Below are positions 8,256 to 57,924 of a DNA stretch of 58,248 nt, one piece after another. The position numbers and the translations under genes are program-made. The notes below the pieces were generated by a model, which was given only the letters and a program-made list of their open reading frames with translations, was not told the origin of the DNA and did no database searches. Within the stretch, counting starts at the first letter, position 1. Each line of letters opens with the position of its first letter. The stretch spans positions 1 through 58,248 of IMG/VR virus record IMGVR_UViG_3300021197_000769; one strand, 5' to 3'. Source of the stretch: a virus. Lineage: Duplodnaviria > Caudoviricetes.

Positions 8256-8261
8256 TTTTTA

Positions 8262-9995
8262 TTAAATTAAAGGCCCAAACCCAGATTGTAAAATAACTTT
8301 TCCATTTTTATCAAATCTTATTGGTGCTGGCTTAGATACTGTCCTAACTTCTATTGGTACGAATTTTTCTTCTAAGTAAGTTTTTATCTTATCCATATCA
8401 TTAAATATATCGTATCCTTCATCTAATATTGGAACATAATCTTTAAACATTGTTTCTTCACCGTCTTCTACTTCTTTTCTTAGTTGTTCTCTAACAGGGT
8501 AAAATTTACCATCTTTTATTTCAAAGTTAATATTTGGCGTAATTAAACCACCCATTTCTTTTCTAAATGCATCTATTATATCCTTCTCATCTATATCTGA
8601 TGCTTTAATTGGAATGCCACTTTTGCCAGGTTTTGTTTTTCGTATTTTAGCAACATTGGATTCTAAATTTTCAAATGCTCTATCAATCTGGCCTTGTATT
8701 TGATTAGCTTTTAATTGTATGTCTCTAGGTTTATCAGCTTTGGTATCGCTAGCCATAGATTTTCTAAGCCTTTCAGTTGCGGCAGCATCAATTTCTCTTT
8801 TAGGGTCACTAAATGCGCCGGCCCCATTGGCAGATATCTCATGTACCATTCGCATAAAACCATCATATTCGTCGTCACTTAAAAAAGCTGTGCTTGGTGA
8901 ATTATTTTCTGTGTCCATAATAAATTCTCCAAATTCGTTAGTGATAGGGGTTACTTTATCTTCCCGCTCTGCTTTGCCCTCTGCATTCTTATATATAGAT
9001 CCATCTTTATTTCTTTTAAAAAATCTATATCCAACAGCATCGCTACCCGGAATTTTTTCTCCTATACCCTCCTCTTGGAGTAAATCTAGCATTGATTCCA
9101 CTCCATTTTTTATAATTAACTCGCCATACTCTGTTGCAGCGGGTTCAACAGAAGAATACAGCTTATCTGAATCAATACTTTCTATATTATATATGGAGCT
9201 TGCAACATTTTCAGTTGATTCTTTTATAAACATGTCAGCAGGAGTATTATTGGCCTTTAAAACATCTATCCCCTTTAAAATTTCTTGTGTACCCCCGATA
9301 ACATCAGGATTTATCCTGTAGCTTTGTCTATTAAATTTTGTTTCAGGGTTTTCGCCCCCTAAAAAATTAGCGTAATCTCTTATTGTAACTCCATCTTTTT
9401 TACGCTCAAGGTAGTCATGGTATTCTCCATCATCGCCTAACTCAACTCCATAACTTTTTTCCCATCCAGTTCCAGAGGAGTATGCTTCTAAAAAATTGCC
9501 TGTTGCAGAGGCAGGAGAGATTTGATTTGGTTTTGATCCAACCCCCTTTGATAGATCATTATTTATTTGTTCGTCCGAGGCCTCTAAGTTAGCTAAACTT
9601 GTTTGAAGTCCATTAAAATACTGTTGCCCCGCAGCAACTAATCTAGTTTCTTTGTTATATTCCTCCGTTCCAGTCTCTAATCCCCCTGGTAGGGTTCTTA
9701 TTCTTCCATTAGCGGTTTGCATGGAAACAAATTTAGTAGCGTCCGTAACGCTTTGAGCATTAAGGGAACTATTTTCAATATTTGAATTTCCAATAGAAAG
9801 GCGTTTAGCCTCCTCTGTATGAATTTTTCTTATAGCCTTATCAGTCTCTTCTTTTTGTTTAGCTCTTTTTTCGGATTGTTTTAATGAGGCTTGCAAAATT
9901 TTATTAAAATTAGCAGAAAGTCTATCTGTTGTAGCCCTAGATATTTTACCCGATTGTGTATCAACTAATGATGCTGGTTTTCTATATGTACCCAT
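8262..9995 (-). CDS. Putative internal virion (ejection) protein
   Basis: 577-aa hydrophilic ORF between the Ala/Gln-rich gene and the giant gene; function is positional inference only. Confidence 0.6.
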   Translation of the reverse strand: MGTYRKPASLVDTQSGKISRATTDRLSANFNKILQASLKQSEKRAKQKEETDKAIRKIHTEEAKRLSIGNSNIENSSLNAQSVTDATKFVSMQTANGRIRTLPGGLETGTEEYNKETRLVAAGQQYFNGLQTSLANLEASDEQINNDLSKGVGSKPNQISPASATGNFLEAYSSGTGWEKSYGVELGDDGEYHDYLERKKDGVTIRDYANFLGGENPETKFNRQSYRINPDVIGGTQEILKGIDVLKANNTPADMFIKESTENVASSIYNIESIDSDKLYSSVEPAATEYGELIIKNGVESMLDLLQEEGIGEKIPGSDAVGYRFFKRNKDGSIYKNAEGKAEREDKVTPITNEFGEFIMDTENNSPSTAFLSDDEYDGFMRMVHEISANGAGAFSDPKREIDAAATERLRKSMASDTKADKPRDIQLKANQIQGQIDRAFENLESNVAKIRKTKPGKSGIPIKASDIDEKDIIDAFRKEMGGLITPNINFEIKDGKFYPVREQLRKEVEDGEETMFKDYVPILDEGYDIFNDMDKIKTYLEEKFVPIEVRTVSKPAPIRFDKNGKVILQSGFGPLI

Positions 9996-10013
9996 GTTCC
10001 TTTATTATTTTTA

Positions 10014-10748
10014 TTACCCTAAGCCCCCGAAGCCTTTGCTTATATTTCCACTACCAAAGCCTGTTCTAGGCATAAAGGTTTTTCTAGGTATACTTATATT
10101 ACTTTTTTTGCCAAGGCTGCCAAGGTCAAACTGTCCACTACTAATTCCTGCCCCCGCTAAACTACCGGCCATATCTCCTAATGCGCCAAGGCCACTTGAA
10201 AAAGCCGCTCTTTTATCAATTGTCGATTGCATTTCTCTTGCTCTTTGCTCATCAGTTAATGATTGTGTTCTATCTAATTGTTCCACAATGCGAGCTTCTG
10301 CTCTTAACCCTTCTTCTAATTTTTTCTGTTGTAAAACCGCTTCTCCTTCGGCTCTTAATTTTTCGTTAGCCGCCTCTTGTTTTTCTATGCTAGCCGAAAC
10401 CCCCTTTTTACTTGATAAAGCTGCTTGTGCTAATGCCGTAGCCCCACCTGCTGCTCCGCCTGTTGCTCTGATTGTGTCTAATGTATTTGCTAAAGCAATA
10501 TCTGTTTGCTCAATTTGCATTTCTGCGGCTTGTGCTGCGACACCTAAGTTAGCATATGTGTTACTAAATTGTCCTTCAAAATTATTTACAAGATCTCTTC
10601 TTTCTTGCTCTAAATTTTTTAAAGTCCTTTCCAAAGCCTCTCTTTTGCCTTTAGCATCTGCTTTATCTTTTTTTGCATTAGCCATACCTACTATAGTATT
10701 AGTTATAGCTGATCCCGCTTGTACTAACATTGCTGCCATTAGTCCCAT
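10014..10748 (-). CDS. Putative small ejection/pilot protein
   Basis: 244 aa, Ala/Gly/Gln-rich coiled coil with hydrophobic Gly-rich N- and C-terminal segments, typical of podovirus gp14-like proteins. Confidence 0.65.
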   Translation of the reverse strand: MGLMAAMLVQAGSAITNTIVGMANAKKDKADAKGKREALERTLKNLEQERRDLVNNFEGQFSNTYANLGVAAQAAEMQIEQTDIALANTLDTIRATGGAAGGATALAQAALSSKKGVSASIEKQEAANEKLRAEGEAVLQQKKLEEGLRAEARIVEQLDRTQSLTDEQRAREMQSTIDKRAAFSSGLGALGDMAGSLAGAGISSGQFDLGSLGKKSNISIPRKTFMPRTGFGSGNISKGFGGLG

Positions 10749-10762
10749 ATTATTTTATTTTT

Positions 10763-12529
10763 TTAAGATTTAACATATTTTGAGGATACCGCAAATAATG
10801 TTTTAGTACCACCTACATCTGTGGTGCTGTCGGTACTAATTTTAACAGTTGCAAAGTATCCTTTTATTCCGCTCATGCTATCGTTTGATGCCACTTGCCC
10901 TGGCATACCGAATGGTATACTTTGGGAAACAGCCCCTGTTGAATCAACACCTTTATTTATTAGGTTAGCATAATATTTGTTTTCTTTTCTATCAAATCCT
11001 ACTCTATATGTTATTCCACCTTCAATATATGCGCCCTCATCGTAGCTATATACAAGTGATGTTTTATCTTGATAGTTAATTGATTCTATACTAAGTCCCG
11101 TTGGGTCTGATAAAAAGTAATCCGACTGCCAACCGTTAGACCCTTCGTAGTTTACTGTTTGGAAATTTTTAGAGATATAAACATCGGGATTAAAGGATAG
11201 TATAACCGATGTTGGGTAATACGTTCCATAGAAGTACCCTCTATTATTAATTACACTTTTATCGTAATGTTTCCAAATAGATGCACCTTTGCATGTGTAA
11301 TAACTGCTATTTAATGTACCGCCAAAGCTTGGGTCGTAATCCCAAAAACTTGTCCAAGCATTATTTGATTCATTAAATGATAGTGTGTTGTACGTTTCTA
11401 TATTATCCCCATCATTAAATACTTGTGTTGATACAACATACTTATCATGGTAGTTGTCGTATGCTCCAACAATTTTATCTTTAACATAACTAAATAAAGA
11501 TATTTCTCCAGTATCACCCCCCGACAATGGATTGTCAAAAATAATATCAATATCTGGGTCGGTTTTTCCAATATATATATAAGCTTCAGGTGTAGGAGTA
11601 CTACCGCTGTTAAAAAATATGCCCTTTACATAAAAATTATTAGGGGTTATTCCTAATATACCCATACCTACTTCTATAGTATTAGGAATTTCTGTAGTTC
11701 CCTCGGGTAAATCTAAAATAAGGTACTCATTGCCTGGACCTATTTTTGCCGTAAAAGTATTCTCTTTTGATTTATTTATAGTGGTAACAGTAGCTAAGTC
11801 ATCTCTAAAGAAGTCTCTCATTCCATATGAACTTATTTCCGTTATACCATCTCTTGATAGCCTTAAAATAGCTCCTCTGCTTCTGTCAGAAAAATACATT
11901 CTGTATCCTTTAAAGGCAAAAGATTCTGGGTTTTGACTAATGCCATATTCTCCAGTATATTGGTTAACCTGGCCTAAAACTAACCTTGACGCTGTCAATG
12001 CAGGGTTTCCATCTGCAGTGTATATTGCGTCCTTGTCTATTAAGGCATTACTAACTTTATCTTCCTGAAATATTATTAGGTTGGTATCAGTGGTGTATAA
12101 CTTTTGTATGCCTCCGTATCTTGGGTCAACTTCTTTTGTTATGTTTTCTCCTGTAGAAAAAACGTTAGTTTCGTTTAATCCAGTTAACCGATTGTATAGT
12201 CCAGAGTATATTATTCCGTTGCTAAGTATTAGTTCTGAATCTTCAGACTCTGTTATATAAGCCTTTACTCCAAAATCTACTGATGTATTATTGTATCCTC
12301 CTCGTATCCTAGACTCTTCTATGTACCAATACTTTGTTTGGTAACCCTCAAAAGTTTGCCCGCCTAAAGCATATAGTGGAAATCGGGGATACCCTTCTAT
12401 ATTACTCCATGCTAGTCCAGGCCAAACAGCAGCTCCAGATGATTGCTCAGCAATTACTGGACCAACCCCCGTTGCAACCTTTTTTAACAAAAAAGAATTA
12501 AAGTACTGTACTTCTGTAGTAGCGCTCAT
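10763..12529 (-). CDS. Tail stabilization/nozzle (muzzle)-like protein, C-terminal-type part
   Basis: 588 aa beta-rich; motifs YGGIQKL, LIIFQEDKVS, GEYGISQNPES, YFSD..RGAILRLS.DGITEIS..GM recall crAss-like/P22 gp10-like tail stabilization proteins. Confidence 0.65.
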   Translation of the reverse strand: MSATTEVQYFNSFLLKKVATGVGPVIAEQSSGAAVWPGLAWSNIEGYPRFPLYALGGQTFEGYQTKYWYIEESRIRGGYNNTSVDFGVKAYITESEDSELILSNGIIYSGLYNRLTGLNETNVFSTGENITKEVDPRYGGIQKLYTTDTNLIIFQEDKVSNALIDKDAIYTADGNPALTASRLVLGQVNQYTGEYGISQNPESFAFKGYRMYFSDRSRGAILRLSRDGITEISSYGMRDFFRDDLATVTTINKSKENTFTAKIGPGNEYLILDLPEGTTEIPNTIEVGMGILGITPNNFYVKGIFFNSGSTPTPEAYIYIGKTDPDIDIIFDNPLSGGDTGEISLFSYVKDKIVGAYDNYHDKYVVSTQVFNDGDNIETYNTLSFNESNNAWTSFWDYDPSFGGTLNSSYYTCKGASIWKHYDKSVINNRGYFYGTYYPTSVILSFNPDVYISKNFQTVNYEGSNGWQSDYFLSDPTGLSIESINYQDKTSLVYSYDEGAYIEGGITYRVGFDRKENKYYANLINKGVDSTGAVSQSIPFGMPGQVASNDSMSGIKGYFATVKISTDSTTDVGGTKTLFAVSSKYVKS

Positions 12530-22219: not shown

Positions 22220-24625
22220 CTATCTAGGCCCGAACTTCTCTAGCCCAAAGCCCCCTAATACATCATTACCTGAACTTTCAAAGTTTTTCGGTAATAGGTT
22301 ATTTTTTCTTTGGTCAATCATTTCAGACTGCTGTGTACCTGTTATTTTTACACGCTTATCTTTCCTGTCCTCTATTTCTTTTTCTCTTTCAGATTCAGAC
22401 TTGATTCGCGCTTGGGCTAATTGCATGTTAAAGTTAAACTCTTCAGCCATAAGCTCTCGCTTAATTTGTGCCTCTGTTTGCATTCTTTGTATTTCAAACT
22501 GAGATTTAGCTTGCTCAAGATTTACTTTTTCTGCTGTCAATGCTTGCTGCTTTTGAACTTCTGCCATTGCGGTCTGTTCTGCTAGCTGTGCATTAGCTTG
22601 TGCTTGTGCCTGTATATTAGCTTGTTGCGCTTGTTGTGCAGCGGCTGCTTTTTCTTTTCTTCTAGTCTTTAATATCTCATTTGCTAACTGAAGATTTTTT
22701 ACTTGCCTAATGTCTATTGCATCCTCTAAATCAATACCACCTGATTGCAAAGCAACTTGAATATTTTGTTCTAGCTGTGCCTTTTCTTCTTCATCTGGTT
22801 CTAACTCTAAGAATATACCAAAGTCATGTAGGTTAAGTTCCTTTATGCTATCTAACGTAGCAACATTAAAATGCGTTATACTGTTCTTTAATGAGTTCGC
22901 AGTTAAAGCATATTCTAATGAATCAGCTATTCTTCTCGAGACGTTTTCGCACGTTCTAAGAGCTAAATAACAACTTGCTTGCAATATATGTCTTGTTGCT
23001 ACATTGGATTGGTTAGCGGCCATCTTTTGCAGCCCTACGAGTGCATCTTTAGCTGGAGCAGAACCGTCTCTTGCTTCATTCAGCCCAGTCACATCCCGTA
23101 TCATTTGCAAATAGTATTGATATGTTTGGATTAGTGATTGTATTTTTGCCCCTCCACTCGATGTCTGTAGCTCTTGAATCGGCACCTTGCCTCTATTCAA
23201 TTCACCATCTTGCGTCATAGACCTACCTAAAACACTACCCGTTTGGAAATACATATTAAGTGCTTCGGCAGGATTGTAGTTTGTTCCGTTACCTAAATCA
23301 ACTTCTGCTAAGCCGTCAACATCTAAGAATACTCCGTCAGGAACCATTCTAGACATTACTTGCTGTAACTTAAGGTGAGTTAACTGAATCATATCCGCAA
23401 ACCCAGTAATTCTATTTACTAATGAATCAATTCTTCCATTATAAATTCTAGGGGCACATATAACATAATTCATATCTACCTTAGTAGTATCTGCAAATGG
23501 TCTTGTCATATTTTCCGCAAGCTTCCATTCTAGCATTTGGTTATTGCCTAATACTTTTGCTCCACTATATAATACCTCTATGCTTCTTGATACTCTTTTA
23601 AACGTATCATTTTCTGGCGGATTAAAGCTATCTGTCTTTTGTATTGCTTTTTCTAATCCATTTGCGCCTTGCTTTATTTTAAATACTTGATTGTTGTATG
23701 TCTTGTATTCAAAATATAATATTTGTACTGTATTCTCGTCATACCCTTGCCAGCCTGTAATGTAGTTTCTATTGCCTGGCATTTCCTCAATACGCTTAAG
23801 CTCATCTTCCGGTATATTTGGAAATTGCTTTTTTAACTCAGGTATTGATACTGATCTCACTTCCCCTACATAATATATGTCTTCAAAGTTTGGATCATCT
23901 GTATAAGAATAAACCATATTAGCTGGATCACAATACTCTGTAACAACACCATTTGCTTTGTTCCAAGTTGTTTTTACTGCCCCTATGCCTAATACGGTTA
24001 AATCGTAATTGTATCTTTTCCTAACCTCATTAAACTTGTTTTTAGCAAGTACTTGGTTTATAACTTCTTCTTCCGCTATTTCTATTGATTGCTTATAGTC
24101 AAGCTGCATATGAGTAGCTAACTCTTCCGGCGTATCAGGAAGCTTATCAGGATTGTCTGTATTAAATGCGTCAATTCCTGTTTCTTCTTTAAGCTTAAGA
24201 AGCTGCTCTTTCATTATGATGTCTTGCAACATCTTTTGAGCATAGTCAGTTCTTTTCTTTGTAGAGCCAGGGTCTTGTGCATAAGCTTTTATCTCGTACT
24301 CTTTTTCTGTAATACCATTAGACACTATATCTACAAACTTTGAAATTACAGGAACTGGCTTCCAATCAAGGTTTAAGTAAGATAGATCGCCATTTATTGC
24401 TAGCTCATCTTTATATTTTTGCACGGGCTGTTCGCCTCTTGCATATAATCTAAGTGTATGGAAATGATTGTAATTTGTAGCAAATCTATTGCCAACTCCT
24501 CCTTGCTGGAACCATTCTGCTTCAATTGCTCTACCAACCTGAACGCCATATTCATAGCTTGATTTTTCCTCATCACTAACAACTTGGCTAGGGAATACAC
24601 TGTTTGGATTTGCGCCTACGTTCAT
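22220..24625 (-). CDS. Portal protein
   Basis: 801 aa directly after the terminase; IRDVTGLNEARDG motif; long Gln/Ala-rich C-terminal coiled coil (P22/crAss-like barrel). Confidence 0.85.
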   Translation of the reverse strand: MNVGANPNSVFPSQVVSDEEKSSYEYGVQVGRAIEAEWFQQGGVGNRFATNYNHFHTLRLYARGEQPVQKYKDELAINGDLSYLNLDWKPVPVISKFVDIVSNGITEKEYEIKAYAQDPGSTKKRTDYAQKMLQDIIMKEQLLKLKEETGIDAFNTDNPDKLPDTPEELATHMQLDYKQSIEIAEEEVINQVLAKNKFNEVRKRYNYDLTVLGIGAVKTTWNKANGVVTEYCDPANMVYSYTDDPNFEDIYYVGEVRSVSIPELKKQFPNIPEDELKRIEEMPGNRNYITGWQGYDENTVQILYFEYKTYNNQVFKIKQGANGLEKAIQKTDSFNPPENDTFKRVSRSIEVLYSGAKVLGNNQMLEWKLAENMTRPFADTTKVDMNYVICAPRIYNGRIDSLVNRITGFADMIQLTHLKLQQVMSRMVPDGVFLDVDGLAEVDLGNGTNYNPAEALNMYFQTGSVLGRSMTQDGELNRGKVPIQELQTSSGGAKIQSLIQTYQYYLQMIRDVTGLNEARDGSAPAKDALVGLQKMAANQSNVATRHILQASCYLALRTCENVSRRIADSLEYALTANSLKNSITHFNVATLDSIKELNLHDFGIFLELEPDEEEKAQLEQNIQVALQSGGIDLEDAIDIRQVKNLQLANEILKTRRKEKAAAAQQAQQANIQAQAQANAQLAEQTAMAEVQKQQALTAEKVNLEQAKSQFEIQRMQTEAQIKRELMAEEFNFNMQLAQARIKSESEREKEIEDRKDKRVKITGTQQSEMIDQRKNNLLPKNFESSGNDVLGGFGLEKFGPR

Positions 24626-31205: not shown

Positions 31206-31462
31206 AAAACAACAACAACGTCAAATTCTTTAATAACCTTATATATCACTTTATCAATCTCCATATCAAACCCCGCGTGTCTATCGTAGTAAATAGTGTC
31301 TCCATCTTGTACTCCTTCAACTAGCGTTCCTATGGTCTTCACTTTAGCTTCCCTGTACCTTATATCTTCTCTGTGGCTCTCTCCTAAAATTAAACCACCT
31401 TTAGTAGATACTTCTTTCTCCTTTACAGGCTCTATCAACATATACTTCCCTACTGCCTTCAT
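31202..31462 (-). CDS. groES: Co-chaperonin GroES
   Basis: MKAVGKYMLIEP..E..TKGGLIL (mobile loop), V..IG..V.GV..GD.IYY; adjacent to groEL. Confidence 0.9.
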   Translation of the reverse strand: MKAVGKYMLIEPVKEKEVSTKGGLILGESHREDIRYREAKVKTIGTLVEGVQDGDTIYYDRHAGFDMEIDKVIYKVIKEFDVVVVL

Positions 31463-33000
31463 TATGCTCTTAAGTTATTAATTACACAATCGGTTGCTAG
31501 TATCGTATTGGCTACAGATGCCGCATTCTTTAATGCACTCTTTGTAACAAGTAGTGGGTCAACAATTCCTGCCTTAATCATATTGACTAATTTTCCTGTA
31601 ACTACATTGTAACCATACCCTTTTTTAGTAGGGTATTCAAATTTAGTGATATCAGCATTGGACATTATAACATCAAATGCAGCTCTAATAGCCTTTAAAA
31701 GTATTTCTTCTCCTATGTTAGATGGTGTTATCTTATCACTAGCATTTAGTAAAGCAATTCCTCCACCTGGAAGTATACCCTCTTTAATAGCTGCCTTAGT
31801 AGCACAGATTGAATCCTCAACCCTGTCGGCCTTCTCTTTTAATTCAACCTCTGAGTTAGCTCCTACTTTAACGACACCAACCTTACCTCCAAGTCTTGAA
31901 AGCCTTTTTTCAAGTAAGTGCTTCTTTCCGTTAATCTTTGTAGTCTTTAATTCTTTCTTAAGTTGCTTAATTAAGTCTTTAACGTCATCACTCATCCCAT
32001 CCACTTGGATGATTGTTTCGTCAGATGTAGTTGTTGACTTTAAGCACGTTCCTAAGTGACTCACATCAATTAGGTCCATATCGTCTCCAAGGTCTTCGTT
32101 TATTACTGTAGCTCCTGTTAGAACTGCGAAGTCTTGTAGTGTTTGCTTTTTATTTATGCCAAAGTCAGGTGCATCAATAATGTTTGCCTTGATGTTACCC
32201 TTTGATACATTCATTGAAATTGCTGTAACTAATTGTTCGTCAGCATCTCCAATAATTAATAGTTCTTTCTTGTTTTTAATAACGTGTTCAAGAATGCTTT
32301 GAACCTTTCTTACGTTGGGTATCTTGCTCTCTACGATTAGTACAAGCGGGTTATTTAACTCACAAGCACCTTTCTCTTTGTTATTGATAAAGTGGTGGTT
32401 TTTTAATCCTTTATCTAACGAAGCTCCATCAACTATTTCAACCGATGTTTCTTCGTCATTAGATATTTCCATACTTACCACACCATTCTCACCAACGTCT
32501 TCGAAAGATTTAGCTATCATTGACCCTAAGTTAGAGTCGTTGTTAGAAGATATTGTAGCAACCTGCTTTAGCATATCACCACTTACGTCTACAGCCTTAC
32601 TTTCTAAGTACTTAACAACCTTTTCAACGGCAGAGCTTATTCCATCTCTTACCTCTCTTGAGTTGTAGTCCTTTGTTTCAAATGCCTCTTTTAAAATAGA
32701 GTGCGCTAGCACCGTAGCAGTTGTTGTTCCGTCCCCTGCTTCCTTAACGGTTTGTCTAGCTGCTTCCTTTAGAAGCGTAGCACCCATATTTTCAACAGGG
32801 TCTAGTAGCGTAATTGAATTAGCTACTGTCACCCCATCCTTTGTGATTAATGGTTTTCCAGATGAGTCCTCAAGCATAACGCACTTACCGCTTGCTCCTA
32901 GCGTGGAGCTTACTGCCTTAGTTAGCTTTGATACACCTTCAAACACTTTATTTTTACCTTCGTCTCCGAAGTTTAGATTCTTAACGATTTCGTTAGACAT
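31462..33000 (-). CDS. groEL: Chaperonin GroEL
   Basis: ITKDGVTVA, GDGTTTATVLA, GILPGGG, GIVDP..VT.SAL.NA.SVA signatures; 512 aa, no GGM tail. Confidence 0.95.
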   Translation of the reverse strand: MSNEIVKNLNFGDEGKNKVFEGVSKLTKAVSSTLGASGKCVMLEDSSGKPLITKDGVTVANSITLLDPVENMGATLLKEAARQTVKEAGDGTTTATVLAHSILKEAFETKDYNSREVRDGISSAVEKVVKYLESKAVDVSGDMLKQVATISSNNDSNLGSMIAKSFEDVGENGVVSMEISNDEETSVEIVDGASLDKGLKNHHFINNKEKGACELNNPLVLIVESKIPNVRKVQSILEHVIKNKKELLIIGDADEQLVTAISMNVSKGNIKANIIDAPDFGINKKQTLQDFAVLTGATVINEDLGDDMDLIDVSHLGTCLKSTTTSDETIIQVDGMSDDVKDLIKQLKKELKTTKINGKKHLLEKRLSRLGGKVGVVKVGANSEVELKEKADRVEDSICATKAAIKEGILPGGGIALLNASDKITPSNIGEEILLKAIRAAFDVIMSNADITKFEYPTKKGYGYNVVTGKLVNMIKAGIVDPLLVTKSALKNAASVANTILATDCVINNLRA

Positions 33001-45999: not shown

Positions 46000-46213
46000 C
46001 GAAAAGAAAACATGGGTATTTTATGGTGCAAATAATAATGGTGATATAATTATCCACTTTATAAAAGACTGTAAGATCCCACACAAAACAAAAGAACAAG
46101 CAACTATGCTACAATTACTAAACGACGATGTATACTGGGCTATAGGTTACGAGACATCCTCTAATTGGAATTTATATAACCGTCAAAATATATCTAACAT
46201 AAGAACATTATGA
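45992..46213 (+). CDS. Hypothetical protein
   Basis: 73-aa ORF, ATGA-coupled to the next gene. Confidence 0.55.
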   Translation: MYNEKKTWVFYGANNNGDIIIHFIKDCKIPHKTKEQATMLQLLNDDVYWAIGYETSSNWNLYNRQNISNIRTL

Positions 46214-46551
46214 ATAAAGAAAAACAAATATTAAATACCGTGTTATATATGGTATGCACATATTACGGAGTAGAACCAGATGACGTTAAAGGAAAGAGTA
46301 GAGAGCGGCACTTAGTAATTGCAAGACAAGTATACTGCCACTTAGCGAGAACATATACTAGATCCACATTTAAACAGATAGGTTCTATTATAAACAGGGA
46401 TCATGCAACCGTAATCCATAGTAATAATCTAACTAAAGTTTTATCTACTATAGAGAAAAAAACAGCATACGATATTCGATCTATTATACAATTAAATCCT
46501 GAAATAAAAGAATTGTTTCAAATTGGGAATGCTATGCTATACACTATATAA
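46210..46551 (+). CDS. Stand-alone DnaA domain IV-like HTH protein
   Basis: VC.YYGV...DVKGKSRER.LVIARQVYCHLAR..T..TFKQIG..INRDHATVIHS matches the DnaA C-terminal signature (RDHTTV.H); no AAA+ domain. Confidence 0.85.
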   Translation: MNKEKQILNTVLYMVCTYYGVEPDDVKGKSRERHLVIARQVYCHLARTYTRSTFKQIGSIINRDHATVIHSNNLTKVLSTIEKKTAYDIRSIIQLNPEIKELFQIGNAMLYTI

Positions 46552-46613: not shown

Positions 46614-47105
46614 ATGAATATATTTTACCTACACAAAGATCCTGTGCAAGCTGCTAACATTCAGTACAATAAGCACGTTGTTAAAATGATACTTGAGTCC
46701 GCTCAAATGCTATCTACTGCTCACCACCACTATGCTGAAACCTTAGGCTACGATGCTACTTATATACCATATAAAAAAGCACATTACAACCACCCATCCT
46801 CTATATGGGCACGAGAAAATAGCAGACAATACTATTGGTTATTCAATCATATGTTAGCCCTCGGTAATGAGTATACAAAAAGATATGGCAAAATACACTT
46901 AAGTATTCAAAAATGTTTCGCATCTTTACAGAACTGTCCAGTTGGCATGCCTCTTGGCGGATCCTTTTCAGAGCCTCCACAGTGTATGCCTGATGAATAT
47001 AAAGTACCAAACGATAGTGTTCAAGCTTACTGGAATTATTACATTGGTGATAAACACTCAGTAGCTAATAAAGATGAAAAAATATTTACTAAAAACCCAT
47101 TTTAG
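46614..47105 (+). CDS. Pyrimidine-dimer DNA glycosylase (DenV-related family) protein
   Basis: MNIFYL..DP..AA, KHVVKMILESAQMLSTA, H.NHPS.IW, EY..RYGK.H, PQCMPDEYK, AY.NYY...K. Confidence 0.7.
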   Translation: MNIFYLHKDPVQAANIQYNKHVVKMILESAQMLSTAHHHYAETLGYDATYIPYKKAHYNHPSSIWARENSRQYYWLFNHMLALGNEYTKRYGKIHLSIQKCFASLQNCPVGMPLGGSFSEPPQCMPDEYKVPNDSVQAYWNYYIGDKHSVANKDEKIFTKNPF

Positions 47106-48650: not shown

Positions 48651-49406
48651 ATGAAAAAATACAGTGTAACAAATTACATTCGGTACAAAGAAGATTTAAA
48701 AAAATCTATGCCAGACGATAAACTATGGAATGAATATAGTAGAGATGAAATGATAATAAAGTTCTTACCTTTAGTAGAAAATTTAGCAAGAAAGTTTGCT
48801 ACATCACAGCAAGCTAGTGGTATACTAACTATAAATGATCTTATACAGATCGGGTCTGAAGCTTTAATCAGAGCAACAGATAAGTTAGATTACAACAAGC
48901 TTAATGAATCTGAAGATATTGAAAAGACTTTAAAGTCATTTCTTAGTAAAAGAATTAAAGGAGCAATTAGACGTAGAATAGATATGAATAGTGGAGGAAT
49001 TAAAATACCAGAGCATAAAAGAAGTCAGATGCGAAAAAATCCAGATGATAAAAGTATGGTACAGATGTTTTTTAATTCTATATTCTTAAGTATCGATGCC
49101 GTAAATATGGATGAAGATGGTAACACACTATACCATAATATAGTTGACAAGTCAGAACCATATAATATTAATATATTAAATGCTTATTTGAAAGGATTAA
49201 TGCAGAAACATTTAACAATAAATGAATATCAAGTATTACGATTATCTTATGGACTAGACTGTGAGAAGCACTCGGCTAAAGAGATAGCTCATATATTAGG
49301 GCTTAAAGGTATCAGTAATCACGTAAGAGTTTCAGAGCTAAAGAAACAAGCAGTTAATTCACTTGTAGATAAAGTTGATCACGAGCAAGTTATTGATTAT
49401 TTATAA
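48651..49406 (+). CDS. Sigma70-family RNA polymerase sigma factor
   Basis: Region 2 FLPLVENLARKF...DLIQIGSEALIRA.DK.D...RIKGAIRR.I; region 4 LT..EYQVLRLSYGL...SAKEIA..LG....RVSELKKQA. Confidence 0.9.
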   Translation: MKKYSVTNYIRYKEDLKKSMPDDKLWNEYSRDEMIIKFLPLVENLARKFATSQQASGILTINDLIQIGSEALIRATDKLDYNKLNESEDIEKTLKSFLSKRIKGAIRRRIDMNSGGIKIPEHKRSQMRKNPDDKSMVQMFFNSIFLSIDAVNMDEDGNTLYHNIVDKSEPYNINILNAYLKGLMQKHLTINEYQVLRLSYGLDCEKHSAKEIAHILGLKGISNHVRVSELKKQAVNSLVDKVDHEQVIDYL

Positions 49407-51210: not shown

Positions 51211-52926
51211 ATGAATATAGAACATACGGAAATTAATGGTTTCCAGATTGATAAGTTTAACCAGTATGATCTTGAAGCGGGTAAAACACAGGGGAGTTGT
51301 CCTCTGTGTTCCGCCAATAGAAAAGCTAAAAACCAAAAAGCTAAGTGTGCTAGCTATGATTGGGAGCGTGGACTTGGAACTTGTCATAATTGCAATAGTA
51401 GTTTTCAATTACATACCTATAAGCGTAAAGGCAAAGCTGAAAAAGTATACTTAAAGCCTGAACCTTACGTGCTACAAACACCTGGAACTAAAGTTGAGGA
51501 GTGGTTTAAAAAAAGAGGTATATCTAAGAAAACACTAGAAGATCTTAAGATTAATGAAGGCACAGAATTTATGCCGCAGACTGGTAAAACAGAAAACGTT
51601 ATTAAGTTCAATTACTTTATGGGTGGGGAGTTAACCAACATTAAGTCTAGAGATGGTAGAAAGAATTTTAAATTACATAAAGGAGCTGAAAAAATATTTT
51701 ATAATATTGATAGTATAATAGGTCATCCTGAATGTATTATAGTAGAAGGTGAGATGGACGTCTTAGCACTACACGAAGCTGGTATAACTAACGCAATATC
51801 AGTGCCTAATGGAGCAACGCTCAACAATAACAATTTAGATTACTTAGACTCTTGTATTGATTACTTTGAGGATAAAGAAAAAATAATATTAGCAGTAGAT
51901 TCTGATGAAGCCGGGCAAGCCTTACAAAAGGAATTAGTTAGAAGGCTTGGTGCTGAGATCTGTTATCTAGCTACTTTTGATGACTGCAAAGATGCTAATG
52001 AATATTTATTAAAATATGATAAAGATAAACTCGCTAATAGGATTAGAAAAGCTTCGCCTGTTCCGCTTGAAAATGTTACTACATTTAAAGATATTGAAGA
52101 TGATATTACGGATTTTGTACGTAACGGTTTTAAACCTGGATTTCAAATCGGCTTACCAAATTTTGATAGCATATTCTCAACTTATACTGGTCAGTTTATT
52201 ACTGTCACTGGCATACCTTCTTCCGGGAAATCTGATTTTGTCGACCAAATGGTTGTGGGATATAATAAAAATTATGGATGGAAGACGGCTTTTGCTTCGC
52301 CAGAGAATCAACCTACTTATTTGCATGCACATAAGCTAATGAGAAAAACTTGGGAGGGTATGCCTTCTGCTACAGATATTGGAGGGGATAAATGGGAACA
52401 AGTAGCGGATCATTGCAATAGTAATTATTTTCATATAGATATGGAGAAGTATACTTTAGAATCTGTATTACGCAAGGGGGCTGAGCTAGTAAAGCGGAAA
52501 GGAATTAAATGTTTAGTTATTGACCCGTTTAATAAAGTAAGAGATGTTGACTGCAAGACAGAAGATGTTAATAGATATACTATGGAATATCTAATGAAGA
52601 TTGAAATTTTTGCTAAGAAATATGATGTACTTGTTTTTATTGTTGCTCACCCAACTAAGATGTACAAAGATAAAGATGGTAAAATTGAAGAACCTACAAT
52701 GTATAACATTAAGGGTGGTGGTGAATGGTATGATGCTAGCTATCATGGGCTGTTGGTGCATAGAGATTACGAAGCTAAAACTGTTAAAGTAAAAGTTTTA
52801 AAAATAAAGTTTCAAAACCTTGGTGAGAATGGGGCATCGGCTAATTTTACTTGGGAGCCAAATTCTGGATGTTATGTTCCACACATATCAGATACAGTTG
52901 TTAATGAACCTATGCCCTGGGAATAA
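51211..52926 (+). CDS. Bifunctional DNA primase-helicase (T7 gp4/Twinkle-like)
   Basis: Zn finger CPLC...CHNC, TOPRIM IVEGEMD / AVDSDEAG / KDANE, Walker A GIPSSGKS, Walker B LVIDP, IVAHP. Confidence 0.92.
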   Translation: MNIEHTEINGFQIDKFNQYDLEAGKTQGSCPLCSANRKAKNQKAKCASYDWERGLGTCHNCNSSFQLHTYKRKGKAEKVYLKPEPYVLQTPGTKVEEWFKKRGISKKTLEDLKINEGTEFMPQTGKTENVIKFNYFMGGELTNIKSRDGRKNFKLHKGAEKIFYNIDSIIGHPECIIVEGEMDVLALHEAGITNAISVPNGATLNNNNLDYLDSCIDYFEDKEKIILAVDSDEAGQALQKELVRRLGAEICYLATFDDCKDANEYLLKYDKDKLANRIRKASPVPLENVTTFKDIEDDITDFVRNGFKPGFQIGLPNFDSIFSTYTGQFITVTGIPSSGKSDFVDQMVVGYNKNYGWKTAFASPENQPTYLHAHKLMRKTWEGMPSATDIGGDKWEQVADHCNSNYFHIDMEKYTLESVLRKGAELVKRKGIKCLVIDPFNKVRDVDCKTEDVNRYTMEYLMKIEIFAKKYDVLVFIVAHPTKMYKDKDGKIEEPTMYNIKGGGEWYDASYHGLLVHRDYEAKTVKVKVLKIKFQNLGENGASANFTWEPNSGCYVPHISDTVVNEPMPWE

Positions 52927-53180
52927 TGCCAAATATAAAAGGAAAGGGGGCGTGGGACATGGGTAAGTACTTTATTACTTCAAAAGAGTATAAAGCGAGT
53001 GCTTGGTGTATTAAAAACAATATATTTGTTTGTGTTGTTCCAATAAGACCTGGAGAGTGGGGTATAGAGATTAGCATCGCAGGAAAAATAAGTAAGTCTC
53101 CATATATATATAAAAAAAATATTATATGGGCAAAGTTACACGAATATTATACATACTACTATGATAAATATGCAAAATGA
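52926..53180 (+). CDS. Hypothetical protein
   Basis: 84 aa coupled to the helicase stop. Confidence 0.6.
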   Translation: MPNIKGKGAWDMGKYFITSKEYKASAWCIKNNIFVCVVPIRPGEWGIEISIAGKISKSPYIYKKNIIWAKLHEYYTYYYDKYAK

Positions 53181-53985
53181 ATATAAAAAATTATTAGCCG
53201 ATATACTATCTAATGGCGCTGAAAAGCCAGATAGAACAGATACAGGCACAAAAGCTTTGTTTGGTAAAACAATTAAACACGATATGGCTTTAGGCTTTCC
53301 AGCTTTGACTAGCAAGAAAGTATTTTTTAACTTAGCAAGAACAGAATTGCTTTGGATATTAAATGGTCGAACAGACTTAAAATATTTAGAGGATAATGGT
53401 GTTAAGTACTGGAGACCAGACTACAACCGTTCTGGAAGAATAGACGAAACATTAGGCCCAGTATACGGAAAGCAATGGCGCGATTTTAATGGAGTAGACC
53501 AGCTCAAAACTCTTGTGGCTAATATTATTAAAGATCCAAGTTCAAGACGTCTTATGGTTAGCTCATGGGCTCCACACGAGATGAATGATATGGTTTTACC
53601 TCCTTGTCATTATGCTTTTCAAGTTTTTATTAATGATGGAACTTTAAGTCTATTGTGGATGCAGCGGTCTGCTGATGTGTTCTTAGGTTTACCTTACGAT
53701 ATTATGATGTATGGGTTATTATTAGAATTGTTAGCTAAAGGTGCAAACTTAAAACCTGGACAATTAATAGGGCAGCTTGGCGATTGTCACTTGTATAGCA
53801 ACCATATAAAGCAAGCACAAGAGTTTCTAACAAGAAAAAATAGAAAGTTACCTACATTACAATTAAATAATGGAATAAATATGACTAACTTTAATGAGTT
53901 GTATATTCCTAATATGACTGAAATAAAATTAAATAACTACAATCCTTATCCTGCTATAAAAGCAGAGCTTAGCGTTGGTAAATAA
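53170..53985 (+). CDS. thyA: Thymidylate synthase-family enzyme (ThyA fold, Asn-to-Asp specificity variant)
   Basis: DRT.TGT, ELLW, LGPVYGKQWR, SRR, LPPCH, QRSADVFLGLPYDI, GDCHLY.NH. Confidence 0.88.
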   Translation: MQNEYKKLLADILSNGAEKPDRTDTGTKALFGKTIKHDMALGFPALTSKKVFFNLARTELLWILNGRTDLKYLEDNGVKYWRPDYNRSGRIDETLGPVYGKQWRDFNGVDQLKTLVANIIKDPSSRRLMVSSWAPHEMNDMVLPPCHYAFQVFINDGTLSLLWMQRSADVFLGLPYDIMMYGLLLELLAKGANLKPGQLIGQLGDCHLYSNHIKQAQEFLTRKNRKLPTLQLNNGINMTNFNELYIPNMTEIKLNNYNPYPAIKAELSVGK

Positions 53986-53992
53986 AACAACT

Positions 53993-54766
53993 ATGAAATA
54001 TTATTTATATCACATTCCCGGTAAAAAAATAGGTGTAACTACTAACCTTAAAAGTAGAGTTACAGAACAGCAAGGCTATAAAGAAGGCGAGTACGAAGTA
54101 CTAATGGCCTCTGACAATATTGACTTTATATCTACAATGGAGGTTGAGCTCCAGGCTAAATATAATTATACAGTTGATAGGCAATTATATAAAAATGTAA
54201 TCAATAATAATAACATGAAAATAAATGTAACTGAGGCAACAACTACTTTTCCCGTGCCGGCTAATAAGCTAAAGGGTAATTTAATGGATATGATAGGCTT
54301 AAAGTGGGATACTCACTTAGGCGAGTTTGAACTTACAGTCGATAAGATTCCTTGGATTCTTAAGAATATTACTGTTTCTATGTTTAATTCTAATAGATGC
54401 TACATATATAACAAAGCTTTCTATGAAGAGTTTATTAATAATCCTGAACCATTTAAGCAAGCAGAAACTTTAGAAATGTTTAATAACATTAGAGCATGGG
54501 CTAAGGAACGAGGCTTATATGACAAGGGAGATGCTAAGACCCAATACTTAAAACTTCAAGAAGAGGCTGGAGAGTTAGCTAGGGCTTTATTAAAAGATGA
54601 TCAGGTAGAAGTTGTTGATGCAATAGGAGATATGGTTGTTGTGTTAACTAATCTTGCTCATTTAAGAAATTTAACTATTGAAAGCTGTACAAAATCGGCA
54701 TATAACGTAATTATGAATAGAACCGGCTCTATGGTAAACGGTACGTTTGTTAAAGACAATAAATAA
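53993..54766 (+). CDS. GIY-YIG-like N-terminus fused to MazG-like NTP pyrophosphohydrolase
   Basis: N-term YYLYHIPGKKIGVTTNLKSR...E; C-term WA.ERGL...QYLKLQEEAGELA...DAIGDMVVVL..LA. Start moved to ATG 53993. Confidence 0.75.
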   Translation: MKYYLYHIPGKKIGVTTNLKSRVTEQQGYKEGEYEVLMASDNIDFISTMEVELQAKYNYTVDRQLYKNVINNNNMKINVTEATTTFPVPANKLKGNLMDMIGLKWDTHLGEFELTVDKIPWILKNITVSMFNSNRCYIYNKAFYEEFINNPEPFKQAETLEMFNNIRAWAKERGLYDKGDAKTQYLKLQEEAGELARALLKDDQVEVVDAIGDMVVVLTNLAHLRNLTIESCTKSAYNVIMNRTGSMVNGTFVKDNK

Positions 54767-54767
54767 T

Positions 54768-54983
54768 ATGAAGAAGAAAGAAATAGAATTTCGTGATCCT
54801 GTTGTTGAGCGAGTAGTAGATAAGTTTATATCTAGATCCGATGTAGGTTACAAAAAGTACGGCATAACTCTTAATGATGATCCATCTGAAATTATTGAAT
54901 GGCTTAATCATTTACAAGAAGAACTTATGGATGCTGTATTGTATTTACAAAAAGCTAAAGAGTCGCATGAAAAAAATGTATAA
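54768..54983 (+). CDS. Small all-alpha NTP-pyrophosphatase-like protein
   Basis: 71 aa; RS.VG..KYG.TL...WL.HLQEELMDAVLY (EExxD helix). Confidence 0.6.
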   Translation: MKKKEIEFRDPVVERVVDKFISRSDVGYKKYGITLNDDPSEIIEWLNHLQEELMDAVLYLQKAKESHEKNV

Positions 54984-56061: not shown

Positions 56062-57924
56062 ATGGAAATATCAAACAAAATATTATCAGACATCACGGTG
56101 TATATGAAGTATGCAAAGTATAAGCCACTATTAAATAGACGAGAAGATTGGTATGAGCTTGTTACTAGAAATAAAATGATGCACACTAAAAAGTATCCTC
56201 ATTTAAAAGAAGAAATAGATGAGGCATATAAATTAGTTTATGATAAAAAGGTTTTGCCTTCAATGAGATCATTACAATTTGGTGGTAAACCAATAGAAAT
56301 ATCCCCTAATAGAGTTTATAATTGTGCTTACTTGCCTATTGATTCTGTTGATTCTTTTAATGAAACAATGTTTTTATTGCTCGGCGGAACTGGTGTTGGA
56401 TATTCTGTACAACAGCATCACGTTAACCAGCTGCCATCAATTAGTAAACCTCATGTTAAAAGAACAAAAAGATTTTTAATTGGTGATTCTATTGAAGGTT
56501 GGGCAGATGCCATTAAGGTTTTAATGAAGTCTTATATGGGTGACAAAAGAAGTTCTAATATACAATTTGATTATTCAGACATTAGAGCTAAAGGGGCACA
56601 GCTAGTTACTTCAGGTGGTAAAGCGCCAGGACCTCAGCCACTTAAGGAGTGTATATTCAAAATTACAGGTATATTAGATTCTAAATCTGATGGAGATAGT
56701 TTAACCACGTTAGAGGTGCATGATATAATATGTCATATTGCAGACTCTGTATTGGCTGGAGGTATTAGACGTGCTGCATTAATTAGTTTATTCTCTGCCG
56801 AAGATGATCAAATGATTAGCTGTAAATCTGGCCAGTGGTGGGAATCAAATCCCCAAAGAGGTAGAGCTAACAACTCAGCTGTGCTTATGAGACACAAGGT
56901 AACTGAGTCTTTCTTTATGGACTTATGGAAACGTGTTGAGCTTAGCAATGCAGGTGAGCCCGGTATATATCTTAATAATGATAAGGATTGGGGTACTAAC
57001 CCTTGTTGTGAGATTGCTTTAAGACCATTCCAGTTTTGCAACTTGTGTGAAGTTAATGCATCGAATATTGAGTCTCAAGAAGACTTAAATAATAGAGTTA
57101 AGCATGCTGCTTTTATTGGGACACTACAAGCTGGATATACCGAGTTCCATTACTTAAGAAGCATATGGAGAGAGACTACTGAAAAGGATGCTTTGATTGG
57201 TGTATCTATGACAGGTATTGGATCAGGTGTTGTACTCGGTTATGATATGGGTGAAGCCGCTGAAGTTGTAAAGAAAGAAAATTCAAGAGTAGCAAAGTTA
57301 ATTGGTATCAATCCTGCGGCACGCACAACAACCGTTAAGCCTGCTGGGACGACTTCTCTTGCGCTTGGAACTTCTTCTGGCATTCATGCTTGGCATAATG
57401 ATTATTATGTCCGTAGAATACGCGTAGGCAAGAATGAATCAATGTATAAATACCTTGCTAAGAATCACCCCGAGTTAATAGAAGATGAATATTTCCGACC
57501 TCACGACACGGCTGTAATTAGTATACCGCAAAAAGCGCCTAAAGGTTCTATACTTAGAGATGAATCGCCATTTGATTTACTTGAAAGGATAAAGAAAGTT
57601 GCACAAGAGTGGGTTGTACCAGGTCATAGAAAAGGATCTAATACACACAATGTATCTGCAACGGTATCTTTGAAAGCTGATGAGTGGGACAAAGCCGGTA
57701 AATGGATGTGGGAAAACAGAAATCATTATAATGGTTTATCTGTATTACCTTATGATGGTGGTACTTATATGCAAGCCCCATTTGAAGATATAACAGAACA
57801 AGAGTATAACGATAGGTTGAAGCACCTAGTTAATGTTGATCTTACTAATATAATAGAGGTAGAAGATGAAACAGATCTAGCGGGCGAGATTGCTTGTGGT
57901 GCTGATGGTTGTGAAATTAAATAA
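56062..57924 (+). CDS. nrdJ: Class II (adenosylcobalamin-dependent) ribonucleotide reductase
   Basis: LPSMRSLQ, YNCAY, GGTGVGYS, AGGIRRAA, TNPCCEI, VKPAGT.S, C-terminal CGADGCE redox pair; no beta-subunit gene in the window. Confidence 0.88.
   Translation: MEISNKILSDITVYMKYAKYKPLLNRREDWYELVTRNKMMHTKKYPHLKEEIDEAYKLVYDKKVLPSMRSLQFGGKPIEISPNRVYNCAYLPIDSVDSFNETMFLLLGGTGVGYSVQQHHVNQLPSISKPHVKRTKRFLIGDSIEGWADAIKVLMKSYMGDKRSSNIQFDYSDIRAKGAQLVTSGGKAPGPQPLKECIFKITGILDSKSDGDSLTTLEVHDIICHIADSVLAGGIRRAALISLFSAEDDQMISCKSGQWWESNPQRGRANNSAVLMRHKVTESFFMDLWKRVELSNAGEPGIYLNNDKDWGTNPCCEIALRPFQFCNLCEVNASNIESQEDLNNRVKHAAFIGTLQAGYTEFHYLRSIWRETTEKDALIGVSMTGIGSGVVLGYDMGEAAEVVKKENSRVAKLIGINPAARTTTVKPAGTTSLALGTSSGIHAWHNDYYVRRIRVGKNESMYKYLAKNHPELIEDEYFRPHDTAVISIPQKAPKGSILRDESPFDLLERIKKVAQEWVVPGHRKGSNTHNVSATVSLKADEWDKAGKWMWENRNHYNGLSVLPYDGGTYMQAPFEDITEQEYNDRLKHLVNVDLTNIIEVEDETDLAGEIACGADGCEIK

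Follow-up and report, generated by a model that had tools for sequence, protein, structure and literature searches.

The window analysed here is the 58,248-bp IMG/VR virus record IMGVR_UViG_3300021197_000769 (approximately 91% complete by CheckV; 35.4% G+C), in which a minus-strand arm holds the virion genes and a plus-strand arm the replication module. The plus-strand arm includes a homolog of thymidylate synthase ThyA (53161–53985, plus strand), a protein of 274 amino acids (aa) with Asp at the position of E. coli Asn177, which we predict to be a deoxycytidine monophosphate (dCMP) C5-methyltransferase, that is, a 5-methyl-dCMP synthase. Gene order along this arm runs from a sigma-like protein through an ERF recombinase, a PD-(D/E)XK exonuclease, a small open reading frame (ORF) and a primase-helicase to an 84-aa ORF, and continues from the ThyA homolog through two small genes and a DUF1064 resolvase-like gene to a class II ribonucleotide reductase.

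The ThyA homolog matches Pfam PF00303 with 286 bits (cut-off 24.3) over profile positions 2–266 of 266, as well as PHROG 160 and NCBIfam TIGR03284 (271 bits, above the equivalog cut-off), and its best PDB match is 6auj (E 3e-68). It is 43–53% identical to ordinary ThyAs; in a collection of 50,697 cultured phage records, all 4103 records with a matching ThyA fall below 60% identity to the query. An initial sequence-only reading of this DNA had placed the start of thyA at 53170; the ORF begins at the ATG at 53161. The motif QRSADVFLGLPYDI highlighted by that reading is present, with its Asp codon (GAT, 53698–53700, plus strand) in the frame of the ORF, and the remaining catalytic motifs (PPCH, SRR and HLY) are intact, as it had stated. 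This GAT encodes Asp180 of the phage protein, the equivalent of E. coli Asn177 and L. casei Asn229. HMMER alignments to solved thymidylate synthases place the Asp on the Asn of '...GVPFNI...'; the L. casei chain 1njc (E 9e-64, among the best PDB matches), which reads 'pfdi', aligns its own Asp with that of the phage; and when the protein is aligned with E. coli ThyA by MAFFT, the phage Asp falls at position 177.

Elsewhere, the active site is largely that of E. coli ThyA. In the MAFFT alignment, R21, E58, W80, Y94, R126, R127, L143, C146, H147, Q165, R166, S167, D169, G173, H207 and Y209 are unchanged. This set includes the catalytic Cys146, the phosphate-binding residues Arg21, Arg126, Arg127, Arg166 and Ser167, and all of the residues that canonical ThyA uses for the hydride-transfer step: Glu58, Trp80, Tyr94, Leu143, Asp169, His207 and Tyr209. 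The equivalents of Leu143, Cys146 and His147 are encoded by the L-P-P-C-H codons at 53596–53610 (plus strand), and that of Asp169 by the GAT at 53674–53676 (plus strand), where 5-hydroxy-dCMP synthases have Asn. Of the 12 residues listed in PMC13326640 as lying within 6 Å of C5 of deoxyuridine monophosphate (dUMP), only three are changed (A142V, C168A and N177D).

The Asp is retained in every relative compared. The protein search scored 8000 candidates, 7999 of which passed E 0.001, and an alignment of the query with the 120 homologs listed (71–97% identity) has Asp in 121 of 121 proteins; pattern matching recovers it in 119 of the 120. Related DNA was collected by running six peptide patterns, one of them the N-terminal MINMQNEY, against IMG/VR, and 198 of the 204 matched stretches encode a relative. 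Locus counts given here refer to the best 80 of these 198 stretches, or to 81 when L096 is included, a locus of the same family and gene order that emerged from an outgroup search with P0123. The Asp is present in all 81 loci (78 by pattern, three read directly as LPYDF), encoded among the 78 by GAT in 69 and by GAC in nine, and the motif [V/A]LPPCHY was found by pattern in 80 of the 81, the last not having been looked at for that motif. The sequence-only reading had allowed that the Asp might be a sequencing error absent from relatives; error and chance are both ruled out by its presence in all 121 proteins and all 81 loci and by the use of GAT as well as GAC codons. This invariance, in the presence of synonymous GAT/GAC variation, indicates that the Asp is under purifying selection.

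In the wider family, the best 150 representatives of 50%-identity clusters comprise 136 with Asn, 13 with Asp and one with Ser at position 177; a first pattern count on the same 150 gave 123 Asn, 12 Asp, one Ser and 14 unmatched. The phylogeny of Asp-type ThyAs that the sequence-only reading had suggested gave a divided answer. Trees scatter the Asp-type rows, with 10 changes in FastTree and eight in a quick IQ-TREE run, of which the starred branches force at least four and at least two, respectively, whereas the approximately unbiased (AU) test does not reject one clade of all 19 Asp rows (p 0.061), and a tree uniting the query lineage with that of phages PaMx74 and AXL1 scores better (lnL +28, p 0.73). 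Because the AU test allows a single Asp clade, we make no claim on an independent origin of the Asp in the query lineage.

Further features set the family apart. At positions at least 80% conserved in the 137 Asn-type rows (a class that has Asn at 177 by definition), it carries the specific changes F62I, I79Y, N134A, F176Y, S180M and Q219Y, and Tyr79 and Met180 each occur in 0 of the 137. A canonical dUMP-specific ThyA has Asn177 and ends at the equivalent of E. coli Ile264; the query has Asp and continues for two residues beyond this C-terminus, Gly-Lys (53977–53982, plus strand). The extension measures two residues in 119 of the 121 family proteins and three in the other two, and is absent from 131 of the 137 Asn-type rows and from all 16 other Asp-type rows. 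Closure of the active site, needed for hydride transfer, is assisted in canonical ThyA by the C-terminal carboxylate.

ThyAs of the dCMP-directed kind, with Asp at this site, were reportedly already known from mutagenesis in 1992. The MetaGPA study (eLife 2021, PMC8670742) reports that Asn177 to Asp switches ThyA to dCMP with 5-methyl-dCMP (5mdCMP) as product, that this switch in preference holds for enzymes of two species, that positions 177 and 147 (the latter second) best discriminate cytosine-modified from unmodified phage contigs, and that Asp177 is enriched in the modified contigs. A later article (NAR 2026, PMC13326640) associates Leu143 with methyl products and Asp or Glu143 with hydroxymethyl products, and gives Asp169 to Asn as the mark of flavin-dependent 5-hydroxy-dCMP synthases. 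In a 2024 preprint (10.1101/2024.12.05.627091), IMG/VR was screened for ThyA homologs with this Asp, and 5-methyldeoxycytidine (5mdC) was obtained in E. coli from five of seven Asp177 metagenomic homologs and from the Xp12 enzyme, with the T4 gp1 kinase co-expressed. The same preprint describes co-localisation of Asp-type thyA genes with 5-methylcytosine (5mC)-selective deaminase, PRA-PH and DNA polymerase A domains, an adjacent dCMP-deaminase-family gene in 104 of 149 modified contigs, full C-to-5mC replacement in Xp12 and PaMx74, and, citing labelling data, a proposed flux from 5-methyldeoxycytidine triphosphate (5mdCTP) to deoxythymidine triphosphate (dTTP) in Xp12-type phages. The principle that Asp177 directs ThyA to dCMP, and this kind of enzyme, are already known, and the idea is not new. 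What is new here is to see such an enzyme in this phage family and in so reduced a context, with His147 kept and with an extended C-terminus. We found nothing in the literature on Asp-type ThyA in phages of Flavobacteriia, with the proviso that the sequences in Supplementary Figure 1E of the preprint or Figure 5B of the MetaGPA study may include this clade.

We consider it probable that ORF 53161–53985 encodes a folate-dependent dCMP C5-methyltransferase (5-methyl-dCMP synthase). The cytosine-directed ThyA proposed by the sequence-only reading is the best reading of the locus and agrees with the published Asp177 homologs. Of the two products then named, methyl- or hydroxymethyl-dCMP, the former is favoured and the latter disfavoured: Leu143 and Asp169 fit the published rules for 5-methyl-dCMP over 5-hydroxymethyl- or 5-hydroxy-dCMP. 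Also in favour are the PRA-PH gene that adjoins an Asp-type thyA in PaMx74 and AXL1, both known or putative 5mC phages, the conserved grouping of thyA with its two downstream genes, and the lack of a second thymidylate synthase. With Asp in place of the Asn that reads the O4/N3 edge of uracil, the pocket would take the N3/N4-amino edge of cytosine. By extension from ThyA, the retained Cys would attack C6 of dCMP, methylene-tetrahydrofolate would add at C5, and hydride transfer from the folate would yield 5-methyl-dCMP and dihydrofolate. By analogy, the adjacent MazG/PRA-PH-domain protein could hydrolyse deoxycytidine triphosphate (dCTP), both supplying dCMP and lowering the canonical dCTP pool. 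Phosphorylation of 5-methyl-dCMP to the triphosphate would then fall to host kinases, and incorporation of 5mC into phage DNA to the host replicase working from primers of the phage primase-helicase; there, 5mC may blunt restriction enzymes with C in their sites. Both the 5-methyl-dCMP activity and the modified virion DNA are predictions from sequence.

The gene downstream of thyA (53993–54766, plus strand) encodes a three-part MazG-domain protein of 257 aa (MazG-L), comprising a GIY-YIG-like N-terminal region, a middle domain and a C-terminal MazG/PRA-PH domain. The sequence-only reading had taken the next two genes to be MazG-like; profiles and fold bear this out for the C-terminal domain of MazG-L, whereas for the second gene (54768–54983) no clear relation to NTP pyrophosphatases was detected. 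In Pfam, MazG-L scores 27.8 bits for PRA-PH (cut-off 21.3) and 20.7 bits for MazG, below the cut-off of 22; PHROG 1992 and 715, both MazG families, are also matched, and the profile matches cover residues ~146–256 only. In the model of the protein (predicted local distance difference test score 86), residues 152–257 (nt 54446–54763) have a MazG fold. The model compares with 1vmg at VIA Z 10.1 (root-mean-square deviation 2.2, 83 residues aligned) and with 7ody, the MazG-like enzyme of S-2L, at Z 9.5; its Foldseek matches include DCTPP1 and the S-2L MazG, and the domain keeps the acidic motifs EExxE...D (alignment A1). The N-terminal 150 residues (window 53993–54445) form two conserved regions. 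The first bears the motif YxxYHIPGKKIGVT...R...E (alignment A1), which we tentatively read as GIY-YIG-like by its likeness to the GIY-YIG signature; the second has invariant T-T-F-P and RCYIYNK motifs. The middle domain of the protein is conserved and belongs to no known family. Whole-model fold searches are filled by the MazG domain and say little on the N-terminal 150 residues.

Domains of this MazG type are found in 1532 phage records from a wide range of hosts, and no record (0/1532) covers 80% or more of the MazG-L protein. Among the MazG-domain matches, StenR_269 was considered and set aside: it carries ThyX and has no ThyA neighbour. The suggestion of the sequence-only reading that pyrophosphatases here remove the canonical deoxynucleoside triphosphate (dNTP) is weakened: only the first neighbour is of MazG type, and removal of canonical dCTP in particular is an analogy, made for a domain found in 1532 phage records. 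A MazG protein alone does not identify a phage as one that replaces its cytosine, because such proteins are widespread and one is present in Cellulophaga phage phi10:1 without ThyA. We offer the supply of dCMP from dCTP by MazG-L as a tentative assignment, made by analogy with the gene arrangement of Pamexvirus and with T4, and one that may well be wrong. T4 has a dCTPase (gp56), which we take to be an analogue of this neighbour in function rather than by comparison.

The gene following MazG-L (54768–54983, plus strand) encodes a small conserved protein of 71 aa with an invariant QEELxDA motif. It matches only PHROG families of unknown function, with no Pfam, NCBIfam or PDB sequence match; hhalign gives a probability of 0.2% for its relation to MazG-L, it is modelled as a hairpin of two helices, for which Foldseek gives no match, and the invariant EELxDA motif is its sole resemblance to MazG. 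A MazG-L homolog follows thyA in 79 of the 80 loci, the exception ending just past thyA. The 71-aa gene follows MazG-L in 62 loci and lies immediately upstream of thyA in 16, the other two ending too early; the upstream order is seen in L031, L032, L037, L038, L053–L058, L062 and L064–L068. The contiguity of the three genes, in two orders, across the 78 of 80 loci reaching far enough is modest evidence that thyA, MazG-L and the 71-aa gene work together.

On the other side of thyA, a conserved 84-aa ORF (52926–53180, plus strand) shares 20 nt with the start of thyA, an overlap suggestive of translational coupling. It has no Pfam, PHROG or NCBIfam match and is detected by tblastn in most relatives at 30–86% identity. 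Its upstream neighbour in the replication module is the primase-helicase (Toprim and DnaB-like; 51211–52926, plus strand), which is 72–91% identical in relatives and has its nearest counterpart in Cellulophaga phage phi10:1 (44% identity).

Several observations weigh against a 5-methyl-dCMP synthase whose product enters phage DNA. The caution of the sequence-only reading that no kinase, deaminase or polymerase could be recognised is borne out by motif, profile and family scans. The dCMP-deaminase family PF00383 has no match in the window (E up to 1) or in five relatives that are 96–100% complete (E up to 0.1), DNA polymerase A is likewise absent from these five relatives, and no dihydrofolate reductase (DHFR) was seen; among the larger ORFs of the window, scanned with Pfam and PHROG, there was no polymerase of any family. 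Nor was a phage deoxynucleoside monophosphate (dNMP) kinase found, the only convincing Walker A motif being that of the helicase; a novel kinase is possible, because small ORFs without a family match remain. It is therefore uncertain whether 5mdCMP can enter DNA by way of host kinases, the more so as the published assays added the T4 gp1 kinase. Within the enzyme itself, His147 is retained although position 147 was the second most discriminating MetaGPA site, the C-terminal extension is one that nearly all Asn-type rows lack, I79Y and S180M have no counterpart among those rows, and identity to PaMx74 gp52 is only 29%, versus 43–53% to ordinary ThyAs. Many phages that are not known to be modified also have this type of MazG domain, and Cellulophaga phi10:1, with a related replication module, has a small MazG and two DNA methyltransferases and no ThyA. 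Finally, the preprint reports two of its seven tested Asp177 homologs as giving no 5mdC (10.1101/2024.12.05.627091).

Three other explanations of the Asp were weighed. The enzyme might make 5-methyl-dCMP mainly as a route to thymidylate, with a host dCMP deaminase or a dCTP-level deaminase converting the product; an AT-rich phage would gain dTTP while bypassing dUMP, and little or no 5mC would appear in its DNA. At 35.4% G+C, the demand for T is high. PF00303 has a single match in the window and ThyX none in the window or in four relatives that are 100% complete (CheckV), leaving the phage no other thymidylate synthase, and no kinase for 5mdCMP was found; the flux from 5mdCTP to dTTP proposed for Xp12-type phages (10.1101/2024.12.05.627091) would provide a precedent. 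The documented cases, however, have a phage-encoded deaminase beside thyA, and PF00383 is missing from the window and the five relatives. Moreover, an Asn-type ThyA would serve equally with host dUMP, so that supply of thymidine monophosphate (dTMP) alone hardly accounts for the strict Asp in all 81 loci. We regard this route, a form of the unusual path to dTMP that the sequence-only reading also allowed, as unlikely. Possibly, the protein is instead an ordinary thymidylate synthase, or one of dual specificity, that acts on dUMP, with compensating changes in the pocket making the Asp tolerable. Its overall closeness to canonical ThyAs (43–53% identity, and above the TIGR03284 equivalog cut-off), the retained His147, the clade substitutions near the active site (I79Y, F176Y and S180M), the two of seven Asp177 homologs reported without 5mdC (10.1101/2024.12.05.627091), and a context of ribonucleotide reductase and ThyA typical of nucleotide-supply genes are all in keeping with this. 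Yet position 177 is not free in dUMP enzymes, being Asn in 137 of 137 Asn-type rows (a class defined by it), a single N-to-D change switches the enzymes of two species to dCMP, and Asp177 is enriched in cytosine-modified contigs (both as reported in PMC8670742), which together make a dUMP enzyme rather improbable.

The remaining explanation, a dCMP hydroxymethylase making 5-hydroxymethyl-dCMP, supposes that a displaced C-terminus leaves the active site open to water, and it is kept mainly because of the two-residue extension, which could disturb closure if the C-terminus has the role described above. The sequence-only reading had noted that the T4 dCMP hydroxymethylase has Asp at this site, and in our alignment T4 gp42 does carry Asp at 177, in common with the query. 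The query nevertheless has Leu143 in place of the Asp or Glu of T4-like and MilA hydroxymethylases, and possesses a C-terminal segment where none is aligned in T4 gp42; gp42 itself scores only 58 bits to PF00303 and sits on a very long branch. No glycosyltransferase or other gene for tailoring 5-hydroxymethylcytosine was recognised in the family scans of the window. We consider a hydroxymethylase very unlikely here.

The preferred reading, a 5-methyl-dCMP synthase, leads to a broader proposal that we regard as possible but doubtful: that this phage family replaces much or all of its cytosine by 5mC with a minimal module in which an Asp-type ThyA is joined by a three-domain MazG protein and a 71-aa partner, leaving phosphorylation and replication wholly to the nucleotide kinases and replicative polymerase of the host, without a phage deaminase, kinase, DHFR or DNA polymerase. 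If so, a large uncultured marine phage family, represented by 198 confirmed stretches in IMG/VR and by metagenomic proteins in the thousands, would carry 5mC DNA, with consequences for the escape of these phages from restriction and for methylation-sensitive library preparation and methylation calling of marine metagenomes; the module itself would be a compact, polymerase-independent means of placing 5mC in DNA. The gain would be one of breadth and context rather than of kind, because the link between Asp177 and dCMP is already established.

The phage belongs to a family of uncultured marine podophages that has relatives among the phages of Flavobacteriia; cultured phages hold no DNA nearly identical to it. 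Its portal gene (22220–24625, minus strand) matches phages only: at approximately 40% identity, 68 Flavobacterium (Elemovirus), 15 Cellulophaga, two Tenacibaculum and one Maribacter records, and, at 51% identity, the uncultured podovirus MW202828.1. No ThyA is found in MW202828, Elemovirus elemoD or Cellulophaga phi10:1, which are relatives in structural or replication genes; none of the three gives a MazG-L profile match, in a search that was insensitive and also missed the small MazG of phi10:1. The class II (B12-dependent) ribonucleotide reductase (56062–57924, plus strand; PHROG 367, 432 bits, and the Pfam RNR-II insertion domain) probably serves dNTP supply. A homolog lies inside the flank in only six of the 80 relatives, and most have none within 10 kb. 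The enzyme varies across the family, the window and these six loci having class II and L096 (5623–8206) apparently class I subunits, a call made by eye from ORF translations.

Other genes of the window were noted in passing. A single ORF of 2601 aa without a Pfam match (450–8255, minus strand) may represent a giant protein of the virion or one that is ejected; at the matching end of its virion-gene arm, MW202828.1 carries an ORF of approximately 11.6 kb (record coordinates 741–12320). Also on the minus strand are a structural protein with a crAss-like muzzle protein C-terminal domain (10763–12529; PF25729, 34.9 bits) and a GroEL-like chaperonin (31462–33000; Cpn60_TCP1, 186 bits); the annotation of MW202828.1 includes groEL and a 10-kDa chaperonin. 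On the plus strand, 46210–46551 encodes a 113-aa protein that is essentially the DnaA C-terminal helix-turn-helix domain alone (75.6 bits), and 48651–49406 a weak sigma-70-like protein with region 2 and region 4 matches below cut-off (PHROG 351). The ORF at 46614–47105 (plus strand) strongly matches PHROG 624, 'DNA binding protein' (163 bits), and matches pyrimidine-dimer DNA glycosylase below threshold (21.8 bits versus 23), a function that would be noteworthy in a phage possibly bearing modified cytosine.

Turning to known systems, the Xp12/PaMx74 type was compared through the sequences of PaMx74 and AXL1, as stand-ins for Xp12. PaMx74 has the order PRA-PH hydrolase gp53, thyA gp52, deaminase gp51 and DHFR gp50, AXL1 likewise gp64, gp63, gp62 and gp61, and both modules lie near a helicase and DNA polymerase I. 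The query shares with their enzymes Asp177, Cys146, Asp169, Tyr176, Arg126/127, His207 and Tyr209, and with their modules a PRA-PH gene abutting the Asp-type thyA and a location by the helicase in the replication module. It differs in its 29% identity to gp52, in having His at position 147 where PaMx74 and AXL1 have Pro, in its canonical 140s loop and full C-terminal tail plus two residues, and in its context, where neither a dCMP-family deaminase nor DHFR adjoins thyA and DNA polymerase I is lacking; the neighbour of the query has its PRA-PH domain at the C-terminus, gp53 and gp64 at the N-terminus. The query has a non-acidic residue at 143 (Leu) and Asp169, the combination associated with a methyl product; position 143 is gapped in PaMx74 and AXL1 in our alignment.

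The MazG/PRA-PH enzymes 7ody of cyanophage S-2L and mouse and human DCTPP1 share their helical fold and acidic motifs with residues 152–257 of MazG-L, which differs from them in its ~150 extra N-terminal residues. T4 gp42 has in common with the query the ThyA fold, the catalytic Cys and the Asp at the specificity position; it has Asp143, Thr147, Asn176 and no C-terminal tail, whereas the query has Leu143, His147, Tyr176 and a tail. The 5-hydroxy-dCMP synthases RB69 gp48 and DLP3 gp80, as described in PMC13326640, also combine the ThyA fold with Asp177, and the query has neither of their diagnostic changes, D169N and L143E. The engineered E. coli ThyA N177D and L. casei N229D resemble the query in having a canonical active site with Asn to Asp as the sole change and His147, Leu143 and Asp169 kept. 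Unlike these mutants, the phage enzyme is natural and strictly conserved, and carries in addition F62I, I79Y, N134A, F176Y, S180M, Q219Y and a C-terminal Gly-Lys.

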